Assembly (NCBI GenBank): GCA_003220315.1
Contig: QHSA01000130.1
Span: 292-64,291 of the forward strand
Direction of reading: 5' to 3'
DNA length: 64,000 nucleotides
Origin: Candidatus Rokuibacteriota bacterium
Lineage (GTDB): Bacteria; Methylomirabilota; Methylomirabilia; Rokubacteriales; CSP1-6
Part shown: in pieces, positions 6,799 to 42,755 of the stretch
How positions within the stretch are numbered: the first letter of the stretch is position 1
Layout of the letters: every line of letters begins with the position of its first letter
Position numbers and translations under genes: made by a program
The notes under the pieces: model-generated
The model's input: the letters and a program-made list of their open reading frames with translations, nothing else
What the model was told of the DNA's origin: nothing
The model's database searches: none

Positions 6799-6875
6799 CG
6801 TAGCGGGGTCCGCGAGGCCGCTACACTCCGTGGGTGGCCTGCCCCAGGTACGCCCCGGCACCGTTCCGATCTCAC

Positions 6876-6968
6876 CATCACGTGCGACCTGGCTGCGTCG
6901 CTCATGTCGCCATCACGTCGGACCCGGCTGCGTTCCGCGTGTCGCTCCTCATTCCATCGACAGGTGCG
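6876..6968. repeat. Tandem imperfect ~40-bp repeat (family A: catcacgt..gacc.ggctgcgt..cgctc.tcattcca, then cgacaggtgcg) between thiI and mobA; it supplies mobA's last codons and stop
   Basis: U1 at 6876-6910 and U2 at 6911-6956 align. The same core recurs at 10003-10053. Confidence 0.5.
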
Positions 6969-7555: not shown

Positions 7556-8131
7556 TCACACCGACACCGCGCCCTGGCGCAGGACGCGTGGCGGGTCCAC
7601 GGTCGTGTCGAGGACGGTGGAGGGCTCGCCCCCCGCCGTCGCCCCGCCGTCGACCACGAGGTCGATCGCGTCGCGGAAGTACGCGAGCACCGCCGACGCC
7701 GTCGTCGGGGGTTCGAGCCCGCTCGGATTGGCGCTCGGGGCCGTGACGGGCGCTCGGAGGGCGCGGACGAGACCCAGCGCGACCGGATGCGGAGAGAGCC
7801 GTACGCCGACCGTGCTCGTCCCGGCGGTGACCTCCTCCGGAACGCCGGGCCGCGCGCGCAGGACGAGTGTGAGCGCGCCGGGCCAGTGGCGCACCATCAG
7901 CGCCCGCGCGCGGGCGCCCACCTCCCCGACGGCCTCCGCCATCGCGATCGAGTCCACGAGCAGCAGCAGGGGTTTGGTCTCGGGTCTCCCCTTGAGCCCG
8001 AAGATACGCCGGATGGCCGGCCGCTCGAGCGCCGCCGCGCCAAGGCCGTAGAAGGTCTCGGTCGGGAAGGCGACCACGCCCCCGCGCGCCAGCACGAGGG
8101 CGGCCTCACCGAGCGCCGTTCGGTCGGGCAT
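7556..8131 (-). CDS. tsaC: L-threonylcarbamoyladenylate synthase (YrdC/TsaC type)
   Basis: VVAFPTETFYGLG...SANPSG; trimmed from the 7556..8335 ORF. Confidence 0.85.
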   Translation of the reverse strand: MPDRTALGEAALVLARGGVVAFPTETFYGLGAAALERPAIRRIFGLKGRPETKPLLLLVDSIAMAEAVGEVGARARALMVRHWPGALTLVLRARPGVPEEVTAGTSTVGVRLSPHPVALGLVRALRAPVTAPSANPSGLEPPTTASAVLAYFRDAIDLVVDGGATAGGEPSTVLDTTVDPPRVLRQGAVSV

Positions 8132-8169: not shown

Positions 8170-8694
8170 TCACGTCCGGGGCGTCGGTCTCTTCGTCTGC
8201 TCGGCGACCCGGCGCGCACCCTCGTCCACTTCGTCGGCGAGGCCTCGCCGGTAGGCGTCCAGGCGCTTGCCGAGGGCCGGATCGCCCTGCGCCAGGATCT
8301 GGGCGGCGAGGATCCCGGCGTTGGCGGCTCCCCACTTGCCGATCGCGACCGTCGCCACCGGCACACCCTTCGGCATCTGGGAGATGGACAGGAGCGCGTC
8401 GAGCCCCCCGAGCGGCGTGGCGGCGATTGGCACGCCGATCACGGGCAGCGGCGTGAGCGACGCGAGGAATCCGGGGAGCGCGGCGGCGCCACCGGCGCCC
8501 GCGATGAGGACGCCGAGCCCCCGCGCTTGGGCGGTCGTCGCGTACTCCTGAGTGCGCGCCGGTGTCCGGTGCGCCGAGGCCACGACGACCTCACTCCCCA
8601 CCTCGAGCGCGTCGAGGACTTTCACGGCCTCCAGCATCACCTCGAGGTCGGAGTCGCTGCCGAGCACGATGCCTACCCGTACGGGTCGCTTCAC
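8170..8694 (-). CDS. purE: N5-carboxyaminoimidazole ribonucleotide mutase
   Basis: VRVGIVLGSDSDLEVM...SAHRTP; GTG start after an AAGGAG SD. Confidence 0.9.
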   Translation of the reverse strand: MKRPVRVGIVLGSDSDLEVMLEAVKVLDALEVGSEVVVASAHRTPARTQEYATTAQARGLGVLIAGAGGAAALPGFLASLTPLPVIGVPIAATPLGGLDALLSISQMPKGVPVATVAIGKWGAANAGILAAQILAQGDPALGKRLDAYRRGLADEVDEGARRVAEQTKRPTPRT

Positions 8695-10976: not shown

Positions 10977-12572
10977 TTAGTGGCGGAAGTGGCGGATCCC
11001 CGTCAGCACCATCGCCATGCCGTGCTCGTCGGCGGCGGCGACGACCTCGGCGTCACGGAGTGAGCCCCCCGGGTGGATCACCGCCGTGGCGCCGGCCTTC
11101 GCGACCACGTCGAGGCCGTCGCGGAACGGGAAGAACGCGTCGGACGCGCACACGGTGCCGGCCGTCTCGAGGCCGACCTCACGGGCGCGCATGACCGCCA
11201 GGCGCGCGGAGTCCACGCGATTCATCTGGCCCGCGCCGACCCCGACGACCTGGCGGCCGGTCGCCAGGACGATCGCGTTCGATTTGACGTGCTTGGCCAC
11301 GCGCCAGGCGAAGCGGAGCGCGTCCAGCTCGGCGGTCGTCGGCCCACGCTTCGAGACGGTCCGGCGCGCGGCGGTGTCCAGATCGGTCAGGTCGGCCTGC
11401 TGGGCGAGCAGGCCACCGAGGACGCTCCGGTATTCCGTGAGAGGTCCGGGCAGGCTCGCCCGATCGCAGGGGACCTCGAACACGCGGCACTTCTTCTTCG
11501 TGCGCCGGAGCGCGGCGAGCGCGTCGGGTGCGAACGTCGGGGCGAAGAGGATCTCGACGAAGATCCCGGCGAGCGCCTCCACGACGCCCATGTCGAGGGC
11601 ACGGTTCACGCCGACGATGCCGCCGTAGATCGAGACCGGATCGCTCGCCTTGGCCAGGGCCATCGCCTCGCCGACCGTGGCGCCGAGGGCGACGCCGCAG
11701 GGATTCGTGTGCTTGACGACCACCGCCGCCGGCTCGTCGAACTCCAGCACGACGGCGAGCGCCGCCGAGAAGTCGAGGAGGTTGTTGTAGCCGAGCGGAG
11801 GGCCGTGGAGCTGCCGCATCGCCCCGAGCCCGTGGCGCGGCCCGTCGAGGGGCGTGTAGAACGCCGCCGCCTGGTGCGGGTTCTCCCCGTAGCGGAGCCC
11901 GAGGGCGCGCTCGGCGTCGATCCGGAGCCGGGGCGGCCACGCCTCCGGGGCCGCGGGCGGCGTCACCGTCGCCTGCGGGGACCGCAGATAGCTCGCGATC
12001 GCCGCGTCGTACTGGGCCGTGCGCCTGAACGCGTCCTGGGCGAGGCGATAGCGCGTGGCGTCGGAGAGCGCGCCGCTCCTCCGAAGCTCGTCGAGCACGC
12101 CGGGGTACTGGGACGGGTCGGTCACGACGCCGACGCTCGCGTGGTTCTTCGCCGCGGCGCGGATCATCGTGGGACCACCGACGTCGATCTGCTCGATCGC
12201 CTCGTCGAGCGTGACCCCGGGCCGCGCCACCGTCGTCTCGAAGGGGTAGAGGAGGACGACGACGAGATCGATCGGCGGGATCCCGTGCTTGTCGAGCGCT
12301 TCGAGGTGACCGGGGACGTCCCGCCGCGCCAGAATGCCGGCGTGGATCATCGGGTGAAGCGTCTTGACACGGCCGTCGAGCATCTCGGGGAACCCGGTGA
12401 CGTCGGCGACGTCGCGCACGGCGACTCCGGCGTCCCGCAGGAGCTTCGCGGTGCCGCCGGTCGAGACGATCTCGATCCCCAGTCCACCGAGGGCGCGGGC
12501 GAACTCGATCACGCCGGTCTTGTCGTGGACGGAGACGAGGGCGCGGCGGACCTTCACCGGACGGTCACCCAT
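10977..12572 (-). CDS. purH: Bifunctional AICAR transformylase / IMP cyclohydrolase
   Basis: MGDRPVKVRRALVSVHDKTG...; trimmed from the 10977..12971 ORF. Confidence 0.95.
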   Translation of the reverse strand: MGDRPVKVRRALVSVHDKTGVIEFARALGGLGIEIVSTGGTAKLLRDAGVAVRDVADVTGFPEMLDGRVKTLHPMIHAGILARRDVPGHLEALDKHGIPPIDLVVVLLYPFETTVARPGVTLDEAIEQIDVGGPTMIRAAAKNHASVGVVTDPSQYPGVLDELRRSGALSDATRYRLAQDAFRRTAQYDAAIASYLRSPQATVTPPAAPEAWPPRLRIDAERALGLRYGENPHQAAAFYTPLDGPRHGLGAMRQLHGPPLGYNNLLDFSAALAVVLEFDEPAAVVVKHTNPCGVALGATVGEAMALAKASDPVSIYGGIVGVNRALDMGVVEALAGIFVEILFAPTFAPDALAALRRTKKKCRVFEVPCDRASLPGPLTEYRSVLGGLLAQQADLTDLDTAARRTVSKRGPTTAELDALRFAWRVAKHVKSNAIVLATGRQVVGVGAGQMNRVDSARLAVMRAREVGLETAGTVCASDAFFPFRDGLDVVAKAGATAVIHPGGSLRDAEVVAAADEHGMAMVLTGIRHFRH

Positions 12573-13240
12573 CACAGGCTCGCCTCGGACGCGGGGGCCC
12601 CTGCCCCCGGACGTCCTGCGGCTCGCACAACCACTTTGCGGCCGCTGATCGTGAGCCTCCCTTCGGCGAACAGGCGGATGGCTTCGGGATACAGGCGGTG
12701 CTCCTCCACGAGGATGCGAGCCGACAAGGATTCCTCCGTGTCGTCGGGGTGCACGGGCACGCTCGATTGTAAAACGACCGGCCCGGTGTCCACGCCCTCG
12801 TCGACGACGTGCACGGTGGCGCCGGCGAGCTTGACGCCGTACTCGAGCGCCTGGCGTTGGGCGGCGAGCCCGGGAAACGCCGGCAGCAGCGAGGGGTGGA
12901 CGTTCAGAATCCGTCCGGCGTACGCGCGGACGAAGCCGGCCGTCAGGATCCGCATGAAGCCGGCGAGGCACACGAGGCCGGCCCGTCGCGCCTCGAGCTC
13001 GCGCACGAGGGCGAGGTCGTAGGCTTCACGGTCGGGAAAGTCCTTCGGGTTGACGAAGCGCGCCTCGACGCCGGCCGCGCGCGCGCGGTCGAGTGCCTGC
13101 GCCCGCTCGCGATCGCTGACCACGACGACGACCCGCGCGGGGAAGCCGGGGCGCGCGCACGCCTCTAGGATGGCCTGGAGGTTCGAGCCGCGGCCCGAGG
13201 CGAGGACGCCGAGGCCCAGCGGCGTCGCCGCGGACGTCAC
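12572..13240 (-). CDS. purN: Phosphoribosylglycinamide formyltransferase
   Basis: GVLASGRGSNLQAIL...ILNVHPSLLPAFPG. Confidence 0.9.
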   Translation of the reverse strand: MTSAATPLGLGVLASGRGSNLQAILEACARPGFPARVVVVVSDRERAQALDRARAAGVEARFVNPKDFPDREAYDLALVRELEARRAGLVCLAGFMRILTAGFVRAYAGRILNVHPSLLPAFPGLAAQRQALEYGVKLAGATVHVVDEGVDTGPVVLQSSVPVHPDDTEESLSARILVEEHRLYPEAIRLFAEGRLTISGRKVVVRAAGRPGAGAPASEASL

Positions 13241-19646: not shown

Positions 19647-20941
19647 TGGATGAGCCCCACCCGCCGGAAGATGGCGTCCACGTTCCGGAGGTACCACGCC
19701 GGATCGAAGCAGGCCTTCAGCTCGTCGCTCCCGATCCGGTCCGTCACCGTTGGGTCGGCCGCGAGCACCTCGAAGAACGGCCGCCGCTCCCGCCAGGCGC
19801 GCATGGCGTGGCGCTGGACGACCTCGTAGGCCACCTGGCGGGCGAGTCCCGCCTCGGTGAGCTTGAGCAGCACGCGCTGCGAGTAGACGAGCCCGTGACT
19901 CAGCTCGAGGTTCTCGGCCATCCGCGCCGGGTCCACCTCGAGCCCCTCGACGATGAAGGTCGTGAGGTGGAACAGGTAGTCGAGCAGAATCGTCGAGTCG
20001 GGCAGGATCACGCGCTCGACCGACGAGTGACTGATGTCGCGCTCGTGCCACAGCGCGACGTTCTCCAACGCGGCCAGCGCGTTCCCCCGGAGGAGCCGCG
20101 CCAGGCCGCAGATCCGCTCCGAGAGCTCGGGGTTTCGCTTGTGGGGCATCGCGCTCGAGCCCTTCTGTCCCTCGCCAAACGGCTCCTGCGCCTCGAGCGT
20201 CTCGGTGCGCTGGAGCCCCCGCACCTCGAGCGCGATCTTCTCGAGGGATGCGCCCGCCACGGCGAGCGTCGCGCAGAACTCGGCATGGCGATCCCGCTGG
20301 ACGATCTGCGTGGACACCGGCGCGGCCTCGAGCCCGAGCTCCCCGCACACCTCCGTCTCGAGCTCGGGCTCGACGTGGGCGAAGTTCCCGACGGCGCCAG
20401 AGAGCTTTCCCACCGCGACGGCGGCGCGAGCGCGCCACAGGCGCTCCAGGTTCCGCTGCGCTTCGGTGTACCACACCGCCGCCTTCAGCCCGAAGCTCGT
20501 CGGCTCCGCGTGCACACCGTGCGTCCGCCCAACCGTCAGGGTGTCCTTATGGCGGAGCGCCAGCGCGCGGAGCGCGTCCCGGAGGCGCACCTGTCCCGCG
20601 ATGAGGAGGTCGGCGGCGTCCCGGAGCTGGAGCGCCAGCGCCGTGTCCCAGACGTCGCTCGTCGTGAGGCCGATATGGACGAAGCGAGAGTCCGGACCGA
20701 GCTGCTCCTCGAGGCTCGTGAGAAGCGCGATCATCTCGTGCTTGACCCGCTCCTGGATGGCGAGGATCCGCGCGACGTCCACGCGCGCCGTCTGGCGGAT
20801 GCGCGCCATCGCGTCGGAGGGGATGCGGCCGCGGCGGGTGTAGGCCTCGCACACGGCGAGCTCCACTCGGAGCCACGCCGCGTATTTGGACTCCTCGCTC
20901 CAGAGGCGGCCCATCTCCGGGCGGGTGTAACGCTCGATCAC
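19643..20941 (-). CDS. purB: Adenylosuccinate lyase
   Basis: MIERYTRPEMGRLWSEESKY... Confidence 0.95.
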   Translation of the reverse strand: MIERYTRPEMGRLWSEESKYAAWLRVELAVCEAYTRRGRIPSDAMARIRQTARVDVARILAIQERVKHEMIALLTSLEEQLGPDSRFVHIGLTTSDVWDTALALQLRDAADLLIAGQVRLRDALRALALRHKDTLTVGRTHGVHAEPTSFGLKAAVWYTEAQRNLERLWRARAAVAVGKLSGAVGNFAHVEPELETEVCGELGLEAAPVSTQIVQRDRHAEFCATLAVAGASLEKIALEVRGLQRTETLEAQEPFGEGQKGSSAMPHKRNPELSERICGLARLLRGNALAALENVALWHERDISHSSVERVILPDSTILLDYLFHLTTFIVEGLEVDPARMAENLELSHGLVYSQRVLLKLTEAGLARQVAYEVVQRHAMRAWRERRPFFEVLAADPTVTDRIGSDELKACFDPAWYLRNVDAIFRRVGLIQ

Positions 20942-20976
20942 GCCCTCACCTTAGAGCAAAACACCCCGCAGTGGAA

Positions 20977-21232
20977 GTGCGAGCCGGAGGACGTCGCGGG
21001 GCTGGGGCCCCGCCGTCCGAGGCGAGCGAAACACGAGAATCGTGCGAGCCGGAGGACGTCGCGGGGCTGGGGCCCCGCCGTCCGAGGCGAGCGAAACACG
21101 AGAATCGTGCGAGCCGGAGGACGTCGCGAGTCGGGGGGTTTGGGGGGCCATGTCGGGGCGGCGTTCGCAGACGCGATCGAGCCTCAGGCTCGATCGAGAC
21201 GCGAGTCGGGGGGTTTGGGGGGCCATGTCGGG
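20977..21232. repeat. Composite tandem repeat array: 2.3 copies of a 65-bp unit (gtgcgagccggaggacgtcgcggggctggggccccgccgtccgaggcgagcgaaacacgagaatc), then 2 copies of a 33-bp unit (gcgagtcggggggtttggggggccatgtcgggg) flanking the palindrome gatcgagcctcaggctcgatc
   Basis: Units abut directly with no unique spacers, so this is not a CRISPR. The units are related, in inverse orientation, to the repeats at 31128-31290 and 42658-42755. Confidence 0.7.
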
Positions 21233-21243
21233 GCCCCCCAATA

Positions 21244-22515
21244 TCAACGATGCAGTTCGCGCGGGAGGTTGCGGCGATCGAGGGGTCCGAGCGTGGTCAG
21301 GACGAGGCGGTCCTCGTCGAGGAGGTCGGTGACGAGCGCTTGCACCTCCTCGTGGCGGACGGCGTCGATCGCCGCGAGCATGGCGTCGATCGTGAGGAAC
21401 GAGCCCAGGTGCATCTCGTGCTTGGCGAGCCGATTCATCCGGCTCGACGTCGACTCGAGCGACAGCATCAGGCTGCCCTTCAAATGATCCTTGGAGCGTC
21501 GGAGCTCCTCCTCCGTCACGCCGCTCTTCTTTATCTCACGGAGCTCCTTGAGGATCGACTTGAGGACCTTGGAGAAGTTCGGCGCGTCGCTCGCGGCATA
21601 GATGTAGAGCGTCCCCGTGTCGACGTACGCCTGGACGCCCGAATGGATCGCGTAGACGAGCCCCTGGCGCTCCCGCACCTCCTGGAAGAGGCGCGAGGAC
21701 ATGCTGCCGCCGATCACATCGTTCAAGACGAACAGGGCGTAGCGCTCGGGCGCCGAGTGGTGCAGGCCCGGGAAGCCCATGATGACGTGGACCTGCTCGA
21801 GCGGCTTGTGGACGATGTTGACCCCGGCCTTCATGAGCGGGGGCGTGTCCGTGCGCGGTGTCACCGCGCGGGTGAAGCCGTCGAAGCCGCGCCCGAAGAG
21901 GTCGACGACCCGGTCGTGGGTGACGTTGCCCGCGACCGCGATCATGATGCGTGGCGGCACGTACTCCTCGCCGAAGTGGGTGAGCACCGCCGCGCGATCG
22001 TAACCGTTCACCGCCTCGCGCGTGCCGAGGATCGGGCGTCCGAGCGGATGGCCCTCCCAGAGCTGTGCGGCGAAGAGGTCATGGATCAGGTCGTCGGGCG
22101 TGTCCTCCACCATCTTGATCTCCTGGAGCACAACCGACTTTTCGCGCTCGAGCTCCTCGGCGTCGAAGACCGGATGCAGGAGGATGTCGGTCAGGAGATC
22201 GACCGCGAGCGGCAGGTGCTCGTCGAGCACCTGGACATAGAAGCAGGTGTGCTCCTTCGTGGTGAAGGCGTCCATCTGGCCGCCGACCGAGTCCATCGTG
22301 CGCGCGATGGCCTCGGCGGTGCGCGTCTCGGTGCCCTTGAAGACGAGGTGCTCGATGAGGTGGGACATGCCGATGCGGCCCTCTGGCTCGTGCCGGGAGC
22401 CGGCCTCGACCCACACGCCGACCGCCACGGACCGGACGTGCTCCATCCGCTCCGTGACGACACGGATACCGCTCGGCAGGACGCTCTTCCGGTACCCTTC
22501 GCTCACGGGGACCAC
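21244..22515 (-). CDS. M16-family zinc peptidase (pitrilysin-like)
   Basis: Inverted zinc motif HLIEHLVFKGT (HxxEH). Confidence 0.9.
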   Translation of the reverse strand: MVPVSEGYRKSVLPSGIRVVTERMEHVRSVAVGVWVEAGSRHEPEGRIGMSHLIEHLVFKGTETRTAEAIARTMDSVGGQMDAFTTKEHTCFYVQVLDEHLPLAVDLLTDILLHPVFDAEELEREKSVVLQEIKMVEDTPDDLIHDLFAAQLWEGHPLGRPILGTREAVNGYDRAAVLTHFGEEYVPPRIMIAVAGNVTHDRVVDLFGRGFDGFTRAVTPRTDTPPLMKAGVNIVHKPLEQVHVIMGFPGLHHSAPERYALFVLNDVIGGSMSSRLFQEVRERQGLVYAIHSGVQAYVDTGTLYIYAASDAPNFSKVLKSILKELREIKKSGVTEEELRRSKDHLKGSLMLSLESTSSRMNRLAKHEMHLGSFLTIDAMLAAIDAVRHEEVQALVTDLLDEDRLVLTTLGPLDRRNLPRELHR

Positions 22516-28609: not shown

Positions 28610-31090
28610 CTAAAGCGTGCGCGCCACTTCCTCGACCGTGTAGACCTCGAGGATGTCGCCCGGCTGGACCCCCGTCACGCCGTCGACGCCGATGCCACAC
28701 TCGAGCCCGGCCAGCACCTCGCGGACGTCGTCCTTGAACCGCTTCAGCGAGCCGACCGTGCCCTCGCCGACGACCTCGTCGCCGCGCCGCACGCGCACCT
28801 TCGCGTTGCGAACGATCTTGCCTTCCGTCACGTACGAGCCACACACCGGGCCGAGCTTGGAGATGACGAAGATCTGGCGCACCTGCGCCCGGCCGAGCGT
28901 CGTCTCACGGATCTCGGGCGCGAGCATGCCGGCCAGCGCGGCCCGCAGGTCGTTGATCGCGTCGTAGATGACGTTGTAGCTGCGGATGTCGACGCCGTTC
29001 GCTTGCGCCTGAGACGCCGCCTTGGTCTCGGGCTTGACGTTGAACCCGATGACGATCGCGTTCGACGCCGAGGCGAGCATGACATCGCTCTCGTTGATCG
29101 CGCCCACCGAGCTGTGGATGACCTTCAGCTTGACCTCCTCAGTCGACAGCCGCTCGAGCGCCTCCGCCAGCGCCTCCACGGAGCCCTGCACGTCGGCCTT
29201 GAGGACGAGCCGAAGCTCCTTCACCTCCCCCGACTGGATCTGCTTCTGGAGCCCCTCGAGCGTGATCCGCGTCGCGGTCTTGCCCTTGAGCTTGTCGCGG
29301 TCCTGCCGCATGGTGGCGACCTGTCGCGCCTTCCGCTCGTCGGACACCGCGACGAGGACGTCGCCCGCGGCGGGAACGCCGCTGAGCCCGAGGATCTCGA
29401 CCGGGTCGGACGGGCCGGCGCTCTTGACCTTCTTGCCGCTCGGGTCGCTCAGCGCTCGGATCCGGCCCGAGTGGGCGCCGACGACGACCGCGTCTCCTTC
29501 TTTTAACGTGCCGGCCTGGATCAGCACGGTCGCGACGGGGCCGCGCCCACGATCCAGCCGGCTCTCGATGATCACGCCCCGGGCCGCGCGGTTCGGATTG
29601 GCCTTGAGCTCGAGGATCTCGGACTGGAGCGCGGTCATTTCGAGGAGCTGGTCGATGCCCGTCCCCTTCTTCGCCGACGTCGCGACATAGATCGTCTGCC
29701 CTCCCCACTCCTCCGGGATCAGGCCATGGTTGGCGAGCTCACGCTTGACGCGCTCGGCATCGGACTCGGGCTTGTCGATCTTGTTCACGGCGACGATGAT
29801 CGGCACGTTCGCCGCCCGCGCGTGGTTGATCGCCTCGACGGTCTGCGGCATGACGCCGTCGTCGGCGGCCACCACGAGGATGACGATGTCCGTCGCCTGA
29901 GCGCCACGTGCGCGCATCGCCGTGAACGCCTCGTGCCCCGGCGTGTCGAGGAACGAGACCTTGCCGTGCCGGGTCTCGACCTGGTAGGCGCCGATGTGCT
30001 GCGTGATCCCGCCGAACTCCTTTTCGGCGACCTTCGACTTGCGGATCGCGTCGAGGAGGGAGGTCTTGCCGTGGTCGACGTGGCCCATGACGGTGACGAC
30101 GGGCGGGCGCAGCTTGAGCTGCGCGGGGTCGAGGTCCTCCTCGTCGACGACCTCGCCTTCGACGGACCGGACCTCGAGGTCCACGCTGAACTTGTCGGCG
30201 ACGAGCTTCGCGGCCGTTGGGTCGAGCAGTTCGTTGACCGTCGCCATGACGCCGAGCTCGAGCAGCGCCTTGATCACCTCGCCCGACTTCCGCCGCATCT
30301 TCTCGGCGAGCTCGCCCACCGTGACGGACTCGGGTACCCGGATGAGCTCGCGCTTCACCTCGGCCGGCGGGGCTGGCGGCGCCTCGACGGCGGCAGCCGG
30401 ACGGGCCGGCGCGGGCGCCGACGCCGCGGGTTGGGCGGGGCGCGACGGCGCGGCGAGCGCCGCGGGCCGCGGCACCGTGGTCACGCGCGGCGGCGCGAAC
30501 GGCGGCGCCGGCTGACGGGCCGGGCGCGGAGGCGCGGGCGCAGGCCGCTCGATCGGACGGAACGGGACGATCTTCGGCTCGGGCTTCCTGGTGGGCGCGC
30601 CCGGCGCCGCGGGCGCGATCGGCGCCGGCTTCGCCGCGGCCGGCGGCGCCTCGGGTGCGAGCGTCACCACGCTGGGCTCCGGAGCGATCTCGGACTCGCG
30701 CTTGGCGACGAGCGGGGGCTCGGCCACGGTCTCCGGCGCGGGCTTCGGCTTGACGATCGTCGCCGCGGGCTTGATTTCCGCGGGCGACTCCTCGAGCGTG
30801 ACGTCGGCGGCCTTCTTCGACCGCGCCGGCGCCTTCTTCGTGACCGGCGCGCCGTCAGTCGCCGTGGTCTCCGTCGCGGCCTTCGGCCTCACGGCGCGCT
30901 TCGGCTTCGGCTCCTCGGGCAGCTCGCGGCCACGCCCAAGCTTGACCCGCAGCGCGTTCGCGAGCGTCGTGTCGAGAGGGCTCATGGCACGCAGCCCCTT
31001 GTGACCCATCTCCTCGGCGGCGACCATGAGCTCCTTGCTCGTCACGCCGAGCTCTTTCGCGAGCTCCATCAGCTTTACCTTTGCCGCCAC
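28610..31090 (-). CDS. infB: Translation initiation factor IF-2
   Basis: Ala/Pro-rich N-terminus; G-domain [12 protein letters not shown]...DTPGHEAF; 826 aa. Confidence 0.95.
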
Positions 31091-31521
31091 GGCCCCCTCA
31101 CCTCCTCCGAACCGTTTTCACCGCTCGCCTCTGACGGCGGGGCCTCGATCACAGGCCCGCCTCGCCTTCTCGGCGCGCCTCGCACCGCAACCCCGCGCAA
31201 TCTCGAGGTCTGCACGACTCCCATCTCTTCGCTCGCCTCGGACGGCGGGGCCCCAGCCCCGCGAGATCCGGAGGTCCGCACCGCCATCGCGAGCTCCGCG
31301 CTCGCTTCACAGGGCTTCCTGAACGCGTGGGTGAGCCGCGCGCGCGCGAGCGCGCGCCCGAGGCACAGGTCGTCCGCGCACACGTAGGCGCCGCGACCCG
31401 GGACGGCGCCGCGTGGATCCGTGACCACCACGCCGTCGCGCCGCCGCACGAGCCGCACGAGCACCCGCTTGGGCCGCACCCGCCGACACCCGAGACACGT
31501 GCGCCGAGGCTCCTCGGTCAT
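31075..31521 (-). CDS. ylxR: YlxR/DUF448 RNA-binding protein with a repeat-encoded C-terminal tail (~90 core aa plus ~60 aa from the repeat)
   Basis: [25 protein letters not shown]...GRGAYVC matches YlxR. The ORF then continues through the 31128-31290 repeats ([12 protein letters not shown]...[12 protein letters not shown]) to a stop overlapping the infB start. Confidence 0.7.
31128..31290. repeat. GC-rich dispersed repeats: a ~97-bp unit (31128-31224, gctcgcctctgacggcggggcctcgatcacaggcccgcctcgcc...ggtctgcac) plus a shorter related unit (31229-31290, an inverse copy of the 65-bp unit at 20977)
   Basis: About 85% identical to 42658-42755. The second unit is the reverse complement of the 20977 repeat. 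Confidence 0.6.
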
Positions 31522-42619: not shown

Positions 42620-42657
42620 GCCTCCTCCTTCGGTTTGCCTCCGCCGCGCTTTGTAGG

Positions 42658-42755
42658 CTCGCCCCGGACGGCGGGGACTCGATCACAGGCTCGCCTCGCC
42701 TACGGCTGCGGCTCGCACTGCGGCCCCGCGCGATCCAAAGGTCCGCACTACCACC
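42658..42755. repeat. ~98-bp GC-rich dispersed repeat (same family as 31128-31224) between rpsB and argJ
   Basis: gctcgccccggacggcggggactcgatcacaggctcgcctcgcc...ggtccgcac aligns with the 31128 copy along its full length. Confidence 0.6.

Follow-up and report, generated by a model that had tools for sequence, protein, structure and literature searches.

A dispersed REP-like hairpin repeat at operon junctions of Candidatus Rokubacteria

Classical repetitive extragenic palindromic (REP) sequences favour the 3' ends of genes. The Correia/NEMIS elements of Neisseria and the ERIC/IRU, RUP and BOX families lie between genes, are transcribed together with them, form hairpins and can change how the mRNA is processed or how stable it is; they are similar to miniature inverted-repeat transposable elements (MITEs), with terminal inverted repeats and a length of ~100-150 bp, and Correia elements carry a TA target duplication. 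Rickettsia palindromic elements (RPEs) are palindromic repeats that are inserted in-frame inside genes and translated within the host open reading frames (ORFs). Mycobacterial interspersed repetitive units (MIRUs) are not known to have as their core a GC hairpin that is strongly conserved and shows covariation. PMC12548453, citing Supply 1997, describes MIRUs as mobile, as inserting at start codons and as holding an internal ORF coupled at -4, and according to PMC2734929 the MIRU loci of H37Rv number 41, of which 12 vary in copy number. We describe here a family of GC-rich hairpin repeats in a stretch of 64,000 nucleotides from Candidatus Rokuibacteriota bacterium (contig QHSA01000130.1, positions 292 to 64,291 of the forward strand; the window hereafter), in which the family occupies four gene junctions, among them the one ahead of purB.

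The family is dispersed across a lineage, mainly Candidatus Rokubacteria (GTDB Methylomirabilota), and is found preferentially at operon junctions, mostly in the same orientation with respect to transcription. We consider it probable that the unit is a mobile REP-like hairpin repeat that has adapted to operon junctions in the manner of MIRUs, where the copying mechanism and the function are what we infer. It is apparently an undescribed form of the small intergenic repeats, from an uncultured phylum, with an unusual operon-compatible design. Literature searches with the sequence string and for repeats of Rokubacteria yielded no publication on this family and no description of Rokubacteria repeat content. 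None of the 4227 Rfam models matched the window at the gathering threshold, and at a permissive E-value two of the spacers gave only chance-level matches (<=18 bits).

The hairpin unit and its sites in the window

The M16-peptidase gene (minus strand, stop at 21244) and purB (start at 20941) are separated by a 302-nt spacer that holds a tandem repeat at 20977-21128. Tandem Repeats Finder (TRF) assigns to it a period of 65, 2.3 copies, 100 % matches and a score of 304, in agreement with the preliminary description of this DNA. That description had taken the 65-bp period and a related 97-bp form as the units of the family, and these definitions have been replaced. The natural unit is a hairpin, GTGCGAGCCGCAGGACGTCGCGGGGCTGGGGCCCCGCCGTCCGAGGCGAGC, of about 51-63 nt (~51 nt for the core, ~57-63 nt with its conserved edges). 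The 65-bp period is the hairpin unit plus a 14-nt linker, and in the "97-bp" long form one unit sits within the apical loop of a second. The nested inner unit is complete in seven loci of other genomes (L029, L043, L049, L062, L076, L103 and L111; labels of this type are our handles for stretches outside the window), and is devoid of the apical hairpin in both window copies. The two long forms of the window, which had been put at about 85 % identity, agree at 81 of 105 aligned positions (~77 %). The internal palindrome that had been noted is present and corresponds to the apical stem of the hairpin.

The 21-mer GCTCGCCTCGGACGGCGGGGC occurs six times in the window at <=3 mismatches, where 0.07 copies are expected, and none of 100 shuffles reached six. 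The copies, at 12578+, 21007-, 21072-, 31123+, 31231+ and 42657+, make up four sites. The unfiltered covariance-model scan of the window returned these four sites only, with 67-87 bits for full units and 26-34 bits for matches to the long forms, all other matches being at <=18 bits. The sites listed previously were all recovered, and a fourth, at 12578-12628 between purN and purH, had been missed. The window has a G+C content of ~70 %.

The array ahead of purB starts with a unit at 20977..21041 on the plus strand (hairpin at 20977-21027; 14-nt linker GAAACACGAGAATC at 21028-21041), which scores 86.7 bits with covariance model R1 at 20971-21033 and folds at -34.1 kcal/mol (z -3.0). It reads GTGCGAGCC...GAGGCGAGC in sense on the plus strand, which is antisense to purB and the minority orientation on mRNA, designated F. 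The second unit (21042..21106, plus strand; 83.2 bits at 21036-21098) is 100 % identical to the first, linker included, and is followed by a partial third at 21107..21128 (plus strand), which consists of the 5' arm only, GTGCGAGCCGGAGGACGTCGCG, and adjoins a second repeat family. A CRISPR array was rejected, as it had been in the preliminary description: there are no unique spacers, and units and linkers are identical within arrays.

At the other three sites the unit lies in the majority, mRNA-sense orientation, designated R, and the purB array is the exception. A single unit, with the compensatory stem variant CGGGGGC/GCCCCCG, occupies the purN/purH junction (12572..12634, core 12578-12628, minus strand; 82.3 bits). 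The ylxR/infB junction holds a two-unit array on the minus strand. Its distal member is a short mRNA-sense unit at 31231..31281 (66.9 bits at 31225-31287) with the 5'-arm variant GCGGACCTCCGGATC; this is the inverse copy reported earlier, and the segment 31228-31291 is indeed an inverse copy, 83 % complementary over 64 nt and 87 % over 54 nt. The other member is a long, nested unit at 31123..31215 (25.6 bits), directly 5' of the Shine-Dalgarno (SD) sequence and start of infB, whose outer arms surround an inner unit without the central hairpin. A second nested unit, also mRNA-sense, lies between argJ and rpsB (42657..42749, minus strand; 34.1 bits for its inner part) and ends 37 nt 5' of the rpsB ATG. 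The flanking genes were verified as those of NusA, YlxR (PF04296), IF2, S2, ArgJ, PurB, PurN and PurH, and the placement of the units within probable operon transcripts, proposed earlier, holds at purB, ylxR/infB, argJ/rpsB and purN/purH. An 81-aa ORF considered as ylxR was in the wrong frame; Pfam placed ylxR in another.

The consensus, from an alignment of 63 distinct units of the window and other genomes, reads (G)GTAG-TGCGAGCCGCAGGACGTCGCGGGGCTGGGGCCCCGCCGTCCGAGGCGAGC-CTATGA in the R sense usual on mRNA. Folding gives a stable, GC-rich hairpin of 12 bp with a UC bulge and, outside it, a weaker helix, at energies of -30 to -37 kcal/mol (z about -3). The central helix is 96.8 % paired and has changes on both sides at five pairs, as in GGACG/CGTCC to GCACG/CGTGC, GGAGG/CCTCC or GGGCG/CGCCC, and in GCGGGGC/GCCCCGC to CGGGGGC/GCCCCCG or CTGGGGC/GCCCCAG. 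Covariation scores 0.117, compared to 0.059 in shuffles, and none of 500 shuffles reached this value; pairing falls to 35-47 % in shifted registers, and RNAalifold independently predicts the same core helix. The hairpin is under constraint. The outer pairing of GTAG with CTAC exists in only ~40 % of the units and was left out of the structure model, and in about one unit in four a GTAG directly precedes the hairpin. Hardly any variation is seen across the alignment in the 3' arm CCGTCCGAGGCGAGC, of which GAGG is a part. Of the 5' arm there are two versions, GCGAGCCGCAGGACGTC and GCGGACCTCYGGAWYC, each of which pairs with the 3' arm in a different register, and units with GCCGGAGGACG (containing GGAGG) are found mainly in tandem arrays, namely those of the window, L020 and L037.

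The unit also carries coding signals. In the R orientation its consensus can be read as G-TAG-TG CGA GCC ... GAG GCG AGC CTA TGA. The 5' edge is often G-TAG, in which TAG can serve as the stop of the upstream gene and overlaps a GTG; this GTG is found in 47 of 69 units. From it an 18-codon frame is open through the hairpin, with exactly this length in 12 instances; its stop is the TGA in CTATGA or CTGTGA, where it overlaps an ATG or a GTG, and a GAGG is found 7 nt 5' of that start. In the 18-codon frame the stop/start overlap is in the coding phase of the downstream gene in 16 of 48 instances; in the other two frames the figure is 12 of 95 (Fisher p = 0.0065). Where the upstream ORF is in the 18-codon frame, it reads through the unit. 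The purN ORF does this and acquires the tail …VRAAGRPGAGAPASEASL*, with a TGA that overlaps the purH start (GTGATG); the PurN profile match ends at residue 198 of 222. The YlxR ORF runs through both units (31075-31300), an extension of ~70 codons, and stops just inside infB, and a CoA-binding-like ORF between two units in L071 (3350-3412) likewise reads through a unit.

Dispersal, placement and turnover

The Rokubacteria are abundant, uncultured bacteria of soil and groundwater with large genomes. A scan of a genome collection with a degenerate 20-mer matched at least 117 stretches, and the whole unit is found in at least 58 loci (57 by profile hit and the long form of L030) from at least 28 assemblies, each a GTDB species representative. 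The preliminary description had held the units to be a dispersed family, as opposed to a local duplication confined to the window, and their presence in at least 28 other species-level assemblies bears this out. Among the matches listed, 26 of the 28 assemblies are labelled Rokubacteria, Rokuibacteriota, Methylomirabilota or Methylomirabilia, and the remaining two Acidoferrum and Binatia. The latter two account for full-length units in L016, L052 and L085 (DATHGT01, labelled Candidatus Acidoferrum sp.) and in L064, L069 and L087 (DASPZZ01, labelled Candidatus Binatia); either these contigs are mis-binned or mislabelled, or the host range of the family is wider. Matches in actinobacteria and other taxa were discarded as chance, since only the 20-mer is common to them and it lies inside genes. 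Two viral contigs matched the 20-mer; the one examined, L204, was without the rest of the unit, and the element does not appear to be phage-borne. Several unit loci per metagenome-assembled genome (MAG) are seen among the matches listed, and there are four sites in the 64 kb of the window. The PurB of the window is also found on the NCBI MAG GCA_001918485.1 and on soil metagenome contigs, and the species is present in soils of the Angelo/Eel River CZO. In L017 (~800-870) a unit adjoins the 3' end of an apparent tRNA gene on the opposite strand (…TGGAGCGGGAAACGGGATTCGAACCCGCGACC…).

The placement of the units is not even. Out of 44 sites whose type could be called, 38 lie between co-directional genes, two between convergent and four between divergent genes; a crude count of strand switches as background was too noisy to serve as a null for these types. 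At the co-directional sites the R orientation outnumbers F by 33 to 5 (87 % R, p = 4e-6), and by 51 to 10 with the inclusion of sites at which only one flank was called. There are sites where the units abut start codons, and several units lie inside ORF extensions.

Orthologous junctions show that gain, decay, nesting and tandem amplification of the units have occurred. In L127, the PurN and PurH of which are 64 % and 70 % identical to those of the window, purN and purH overlap directly by ATGA. The spacer between the M16-peptidase gene and purB measures 10-11 nt in L126 and L127, where it holds the SD sequence and start only, and 76 nt, without a unit, in L128. It measures 130 nt in L124, with a hairpin of the second repeat family (G6CC, below) and a decayed unit, and 160 nt in L143, with the G6CC hairpin and 1.3 units. 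Contigs of the same species have 162 or 227 nt, with 1.3 or 2.3 units, and the window has 302 nt, with 2.3 units and a private 75-bp duplication. These copy-number data come from short-read assemblies. The second tandem unit is missing from L002 and L005 (same species) and from L143 (a close relative), the PurB of which is about 92-99 % identical to that of the window and which thus have one unit fewer. At the infB junction, L058 has a single short unit in place of the two-unit array of the window, and the site upstream of rpsB is nested in L048 too, with a different inner part; numbers and variants of the units vary between species at both orthologous junctions. The orthologous proteins of L048 and L058 are 71-86 % identical to those of the window, and the 3' arm and apical stem of their units are nearly identical to those of the window, a conservation that, judged from the sequences, is beyond neutrality. 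At least nine other genomes contain tandem arrays, the period of which is ~61-68 bp and, in the longest, 64-65; L037 has four units, L056 and L116 have three each, and several others have two.

Short-read contigs and scaffolds of the same species break off, or carry runs of N, exactly at repeat sites (L003 at ~8380-8460, L004 at ~8480-8530; contig ends of L001, L003 and L004). The family is a systematic cause of short-read fragmentation in Rokubacteria MAGs. It may be of use as a lineage marker, or as a source of strain markers of the variable-number tandem repeat type in metagenomes. Automatic annotation of these genomes will contain many artificial-looking C-terminal tails such as VRAAGRPGAGAPASEASL.

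The range first assigned to the purB array, 20977-21232, stands in its left part only. The segment 21125-21239 is occupied by a G6CC hairpin and a private duplication. The G6CC hairpin (21200..21239, minus strand) lies directly after the stop codon of the M16-peptidase gene and belongs to a second dispersed family, unrelated to the main one. It has a perfect 8-bp GC stem, GGGGGGCC-N7-GGCCCCCC, and a C-rich tail (…AAACCCCCCGAC…GCTCGGRGCGCCC). Other copies are at L032:5-27, L044:747-769 and 7563-7585, L073:2818-2838, L124:9874-9895 and L143:9845-9866; between genomes the stem is kept and the loop varies. The 75-bp duplication (21125..21199, minus strand) is private to the window and is missing from L001, L002, L005, L006 and L143, five assemblies that represent the same strain or one very close to it. 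Its two parts are a repeated G6CC tail of 35 bp (21125-21159) and a 40-bp segment with a perfect palindrome of 10-bp arms, CGATCGAGCC-TCA-GGCTCGATCG, at 21174-21196; no other occurrence of this palindrome was seen in the DNA compared. Among the tandem repeats of the window, an unrelated one at 6854-6945 (imperfect; period 35, 2.7 copies, 72 % matches) ranks second, with a TRF score of 100.

Probable mobility and rival explanations

The distribution described above is consistent with a family that multiplies within genomes and settles almost exclusively in short junctions of co-directional, probably co-transcribed genes. The unit is probably mobile, or was so until recently, through a mechanism that depends on the hairpin and does not duplicate the target site. 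Copying could proceed as in REP sequences and their REP-associated tyrosine transposases (RAYTs), by single-strand transposition of the IS200/IS605 type, or by template switching. Tandem arrays would grow and shrink through slippage or unequal recombination. The comparisons show head-to-tail local amplification, nesting in loops and the decay of individual copies, while the consensus of the family persists. The purB spacer has expanded to 302 nt, starting at about 10 nt. Where two genes are tightly coupled in translation, an insertion at their junction would be tolerated because termination and re-initiation stay intact, a logic that has been proposed for MIRUs. The coding signals of the unit may be what makes such insertion tolerable, or may have been co-opted for coupling. 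An effect of the intercistronic stem-loop, which is stable, on mRNA decay or coupling is plausible as a secondary consequence; the preliminary description had suggested that the hairpins might act in stabilisation or attenuation.

Of the earlier proposal that the family is REP- or MITE-like, the REP-like hairpin repeat stands and the MITE-like part does not: in the scan for target-site duplications the best model, of 2 nt, accounted for 5 of 37 sites, which is chance level, and no transposase was found in the ~460 kb sampled.

A stronger version of the preferred reading, which we advance tentatively, holds that the unit is a "portable intercistronic junction", that is, a mobile hairpin with its own stop-restart relay (TAG/GTG, the 18-codon frame, TGA/ATG, and GAGG as SD sequence) that colonises coupled operon junctions phylum-wide. 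Downstream translation would then depend on the unwinding of the hairpin by ribosomes, and the unit would perhaps have been recruited to set the ratios of subunits or enzymes within operons. In that case a hairpin-based form of the MIRU strategy would have arisen independently, possibly served by a copying enzyme whose action causes no target-site duplication.

The main rival is a host-selected cis-regulatory RNA element, such as a site for an RNA-binding protein or RNase, a barrier to 3'-exonucleases by which the genes of an operon would differ in mRNA stability, or an SD-sequestering coupler, the multiplication of which is incidental. The strong bias to the sense of transcription, the compensatory changes in a stem as stable as the one described (-30 to -37 kcal/mol, z about -3) and the occupation of the infB and rpsB junctions in different species would all be expected of such an element, as would a 3' arm CCGTCCGAGGCGAGC that is nearly invariant, with its GAGG, between genomes with 71-86 % identity in their orthologous proteins. 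A conserved regulator does not account as well for the orthologous purB copy that has decayed in L124, for relatives without copies at these junctions, or for copies in the opposite orientation, the purB array among them. The host genes are unrelated (purines, translation, CoA-binding, dehydrogenases) and no regulon logic is visible; the tandem and nested forms resemble the dynamics of repeats and not a tuned regulator. There is no Rfam family match and no clear excess of G.U pairs. We regard this explanation as unlikely, although it is the strongest of the alternatives.

Somewhat less likely still is that the units are classical REPs, or REP doublets forming hairpins (REPINs), and as such substrates of a single-copy, domesticated RAYT (Y1/HUH), with the orientation bias arising from lagging-strand targeting and gene-strand bias and the coding signals being accidental. 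The imperfect palindrome of two diverged inverted arms, the high copy number and the vertical persistence in a lineage fit the account of these elements in PMC3337134. Further points of agreement are the GTAG that directly precedes the hairpin in about one unit in four, the long palindromic and nested higher-order forms, and the failure to see target-site duplications, as in elements of the IS200/IS605 type. Such elements would not be expected to be almost absent between convergent genes (2 of 44 sites), and the 87 % bias (33 of 38) exceeds what gene-strand bias alone usually gives. The units are often inside ORF extensions and not outside genes, and the stop/start overlap is enriched in one frame. 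The failure to find a RAYT in ~460 kb also speaks against these elements, and is weakly informative.

We rejected transcription terminators or attenuators, GC-rich hairpins that would halt RNA polymerase between genes, as highly improbable. A stable GC hairpin after stop codons invites this explanation, and only weak terminator hits were obtained, in the region of the purB ribosome-binding site, with a match made up partly of the end of the last purB unit and GTGTTTTG. The unit is not a classical terminator because no U-tract follows it in either orientation. Moreover, units lie inside ORF extensions and between obligatorily co-expressed, overlapping pairs (purN/purH, ylxR/infB), and tandem and nested forms are unnecessary for termination. 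An integron attC site was rejected on anatomy. Local duplication, assembly artefact or chance GC-rich similarity, suggested by 65-bp copies that are 100 % identical and by short-read contigs that vary in copy number as assembly errors can, was rejected with near certainty in view of the four separate sites in the window, the same unit in dozens of independent assemblies from different studies, the 0.07 copies expected from shuffles and the covariation.

Several observations weigh against a mobile repeat adapted to operon junctions, the reading that we prefer. No clean pair of filled and empty sites was obtained between very close strains; at the purN/purH junction, L003 and L004 both have scaffold gaps of N runs. 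Differences in copy number at purB could in part be the collapse of repeats in short-read assembly. No HUH...YxxNP motif was found among 2971 ORFs in ~460 kb, a sample too small to exclude a single-copy gene, and the ORFs bracketed by units are ordinary metabolic genes, with no transposase or RAYT among them. The complete stop/start relay is present in only ~1/3 of the units and is moderately enriched (odds ratio 3.5). A heuristic of open frames and GC1/GC2/GC3, and not curated annotation, supplied the coding strand and phase of the loci, and orientation relative to transcription is not separable in these data from orientation relative to replication. A clear signal of selection on the RNA strand is not seen in the G.U and A.C cells (14 and 8). 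Finally, a role in the host, for example in the binding of a protein or an RNA, could explain a 3' arm that is near-invariant despite protein identities of 71-86 %.

Comparison with described repeat families

Like the Correia, ERIC, RUP and BOX elements, the units are intergenic hairpins that are probably co-transcribed; they differ from these in being smaller and in the negative outcome of the test for target-site duplications. With the RPEs they have in common that the repeat is translated, here as the C-terminal tails of PurN, YlxR and the CoA-binding-like protein. The RPEs lie inside genes, whereas the unit is placed at a junction or 3' end and in most cases provides the stop.

The likeness to REPs and REPINs (PMC3337134, PMC3116915) is closer. 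Both are short, GC-rich imperfect palindromes of two inverted arms, in many copies, with vertical persistence, higher-order and long palindromic forms, no target-site duplication and, in part of the units, a GTAG-like head. In contrast to REPs and REPINs, the units have a strong bias to one orientation, are placed at gene starts and operon junctions rather than at 3' ends and in convergent spacers, are frequently within ORF extensions and have a consensus common to many species; no RAYT was found in the ~460 kb searched.

The likeness to MIRUs, as these are portrayed in the papers cited at the outset, is one of features; a relationship in sequence is not expected, the host phylum is different, and the likeness is to be taken as an analogy. 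Both are units of 40-100 bp at the gene junctions of operons, often in head-to-tail arrays of variable copy number and in the orientation of the flanking genes, and both would occupy dozens of loci per genome. In both, an internal ORF overlaps the neighbouring stop and start (-4, ATGA), by which coupling would be preserved, here in ~1/3 of the units. The present family departs from MIRUs in its array period, which, at 64-65 bp where the arrays are longest, is not divisible by 3, in its nested unit-in-loop forms, and in a consensus common to at least 28 species-level genomes and not to one genus. Two features of the family, neither of them noted in the preliminary description, are the most informative: its orientation bias and its set of stop, start and open-frame signals. 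They make it as much MIRU-like as REP-like. A REP-like hairpin that is compatible with translational coupling in the manner of a MIRU would be a second, independent example of selfish repeats living inside operons.

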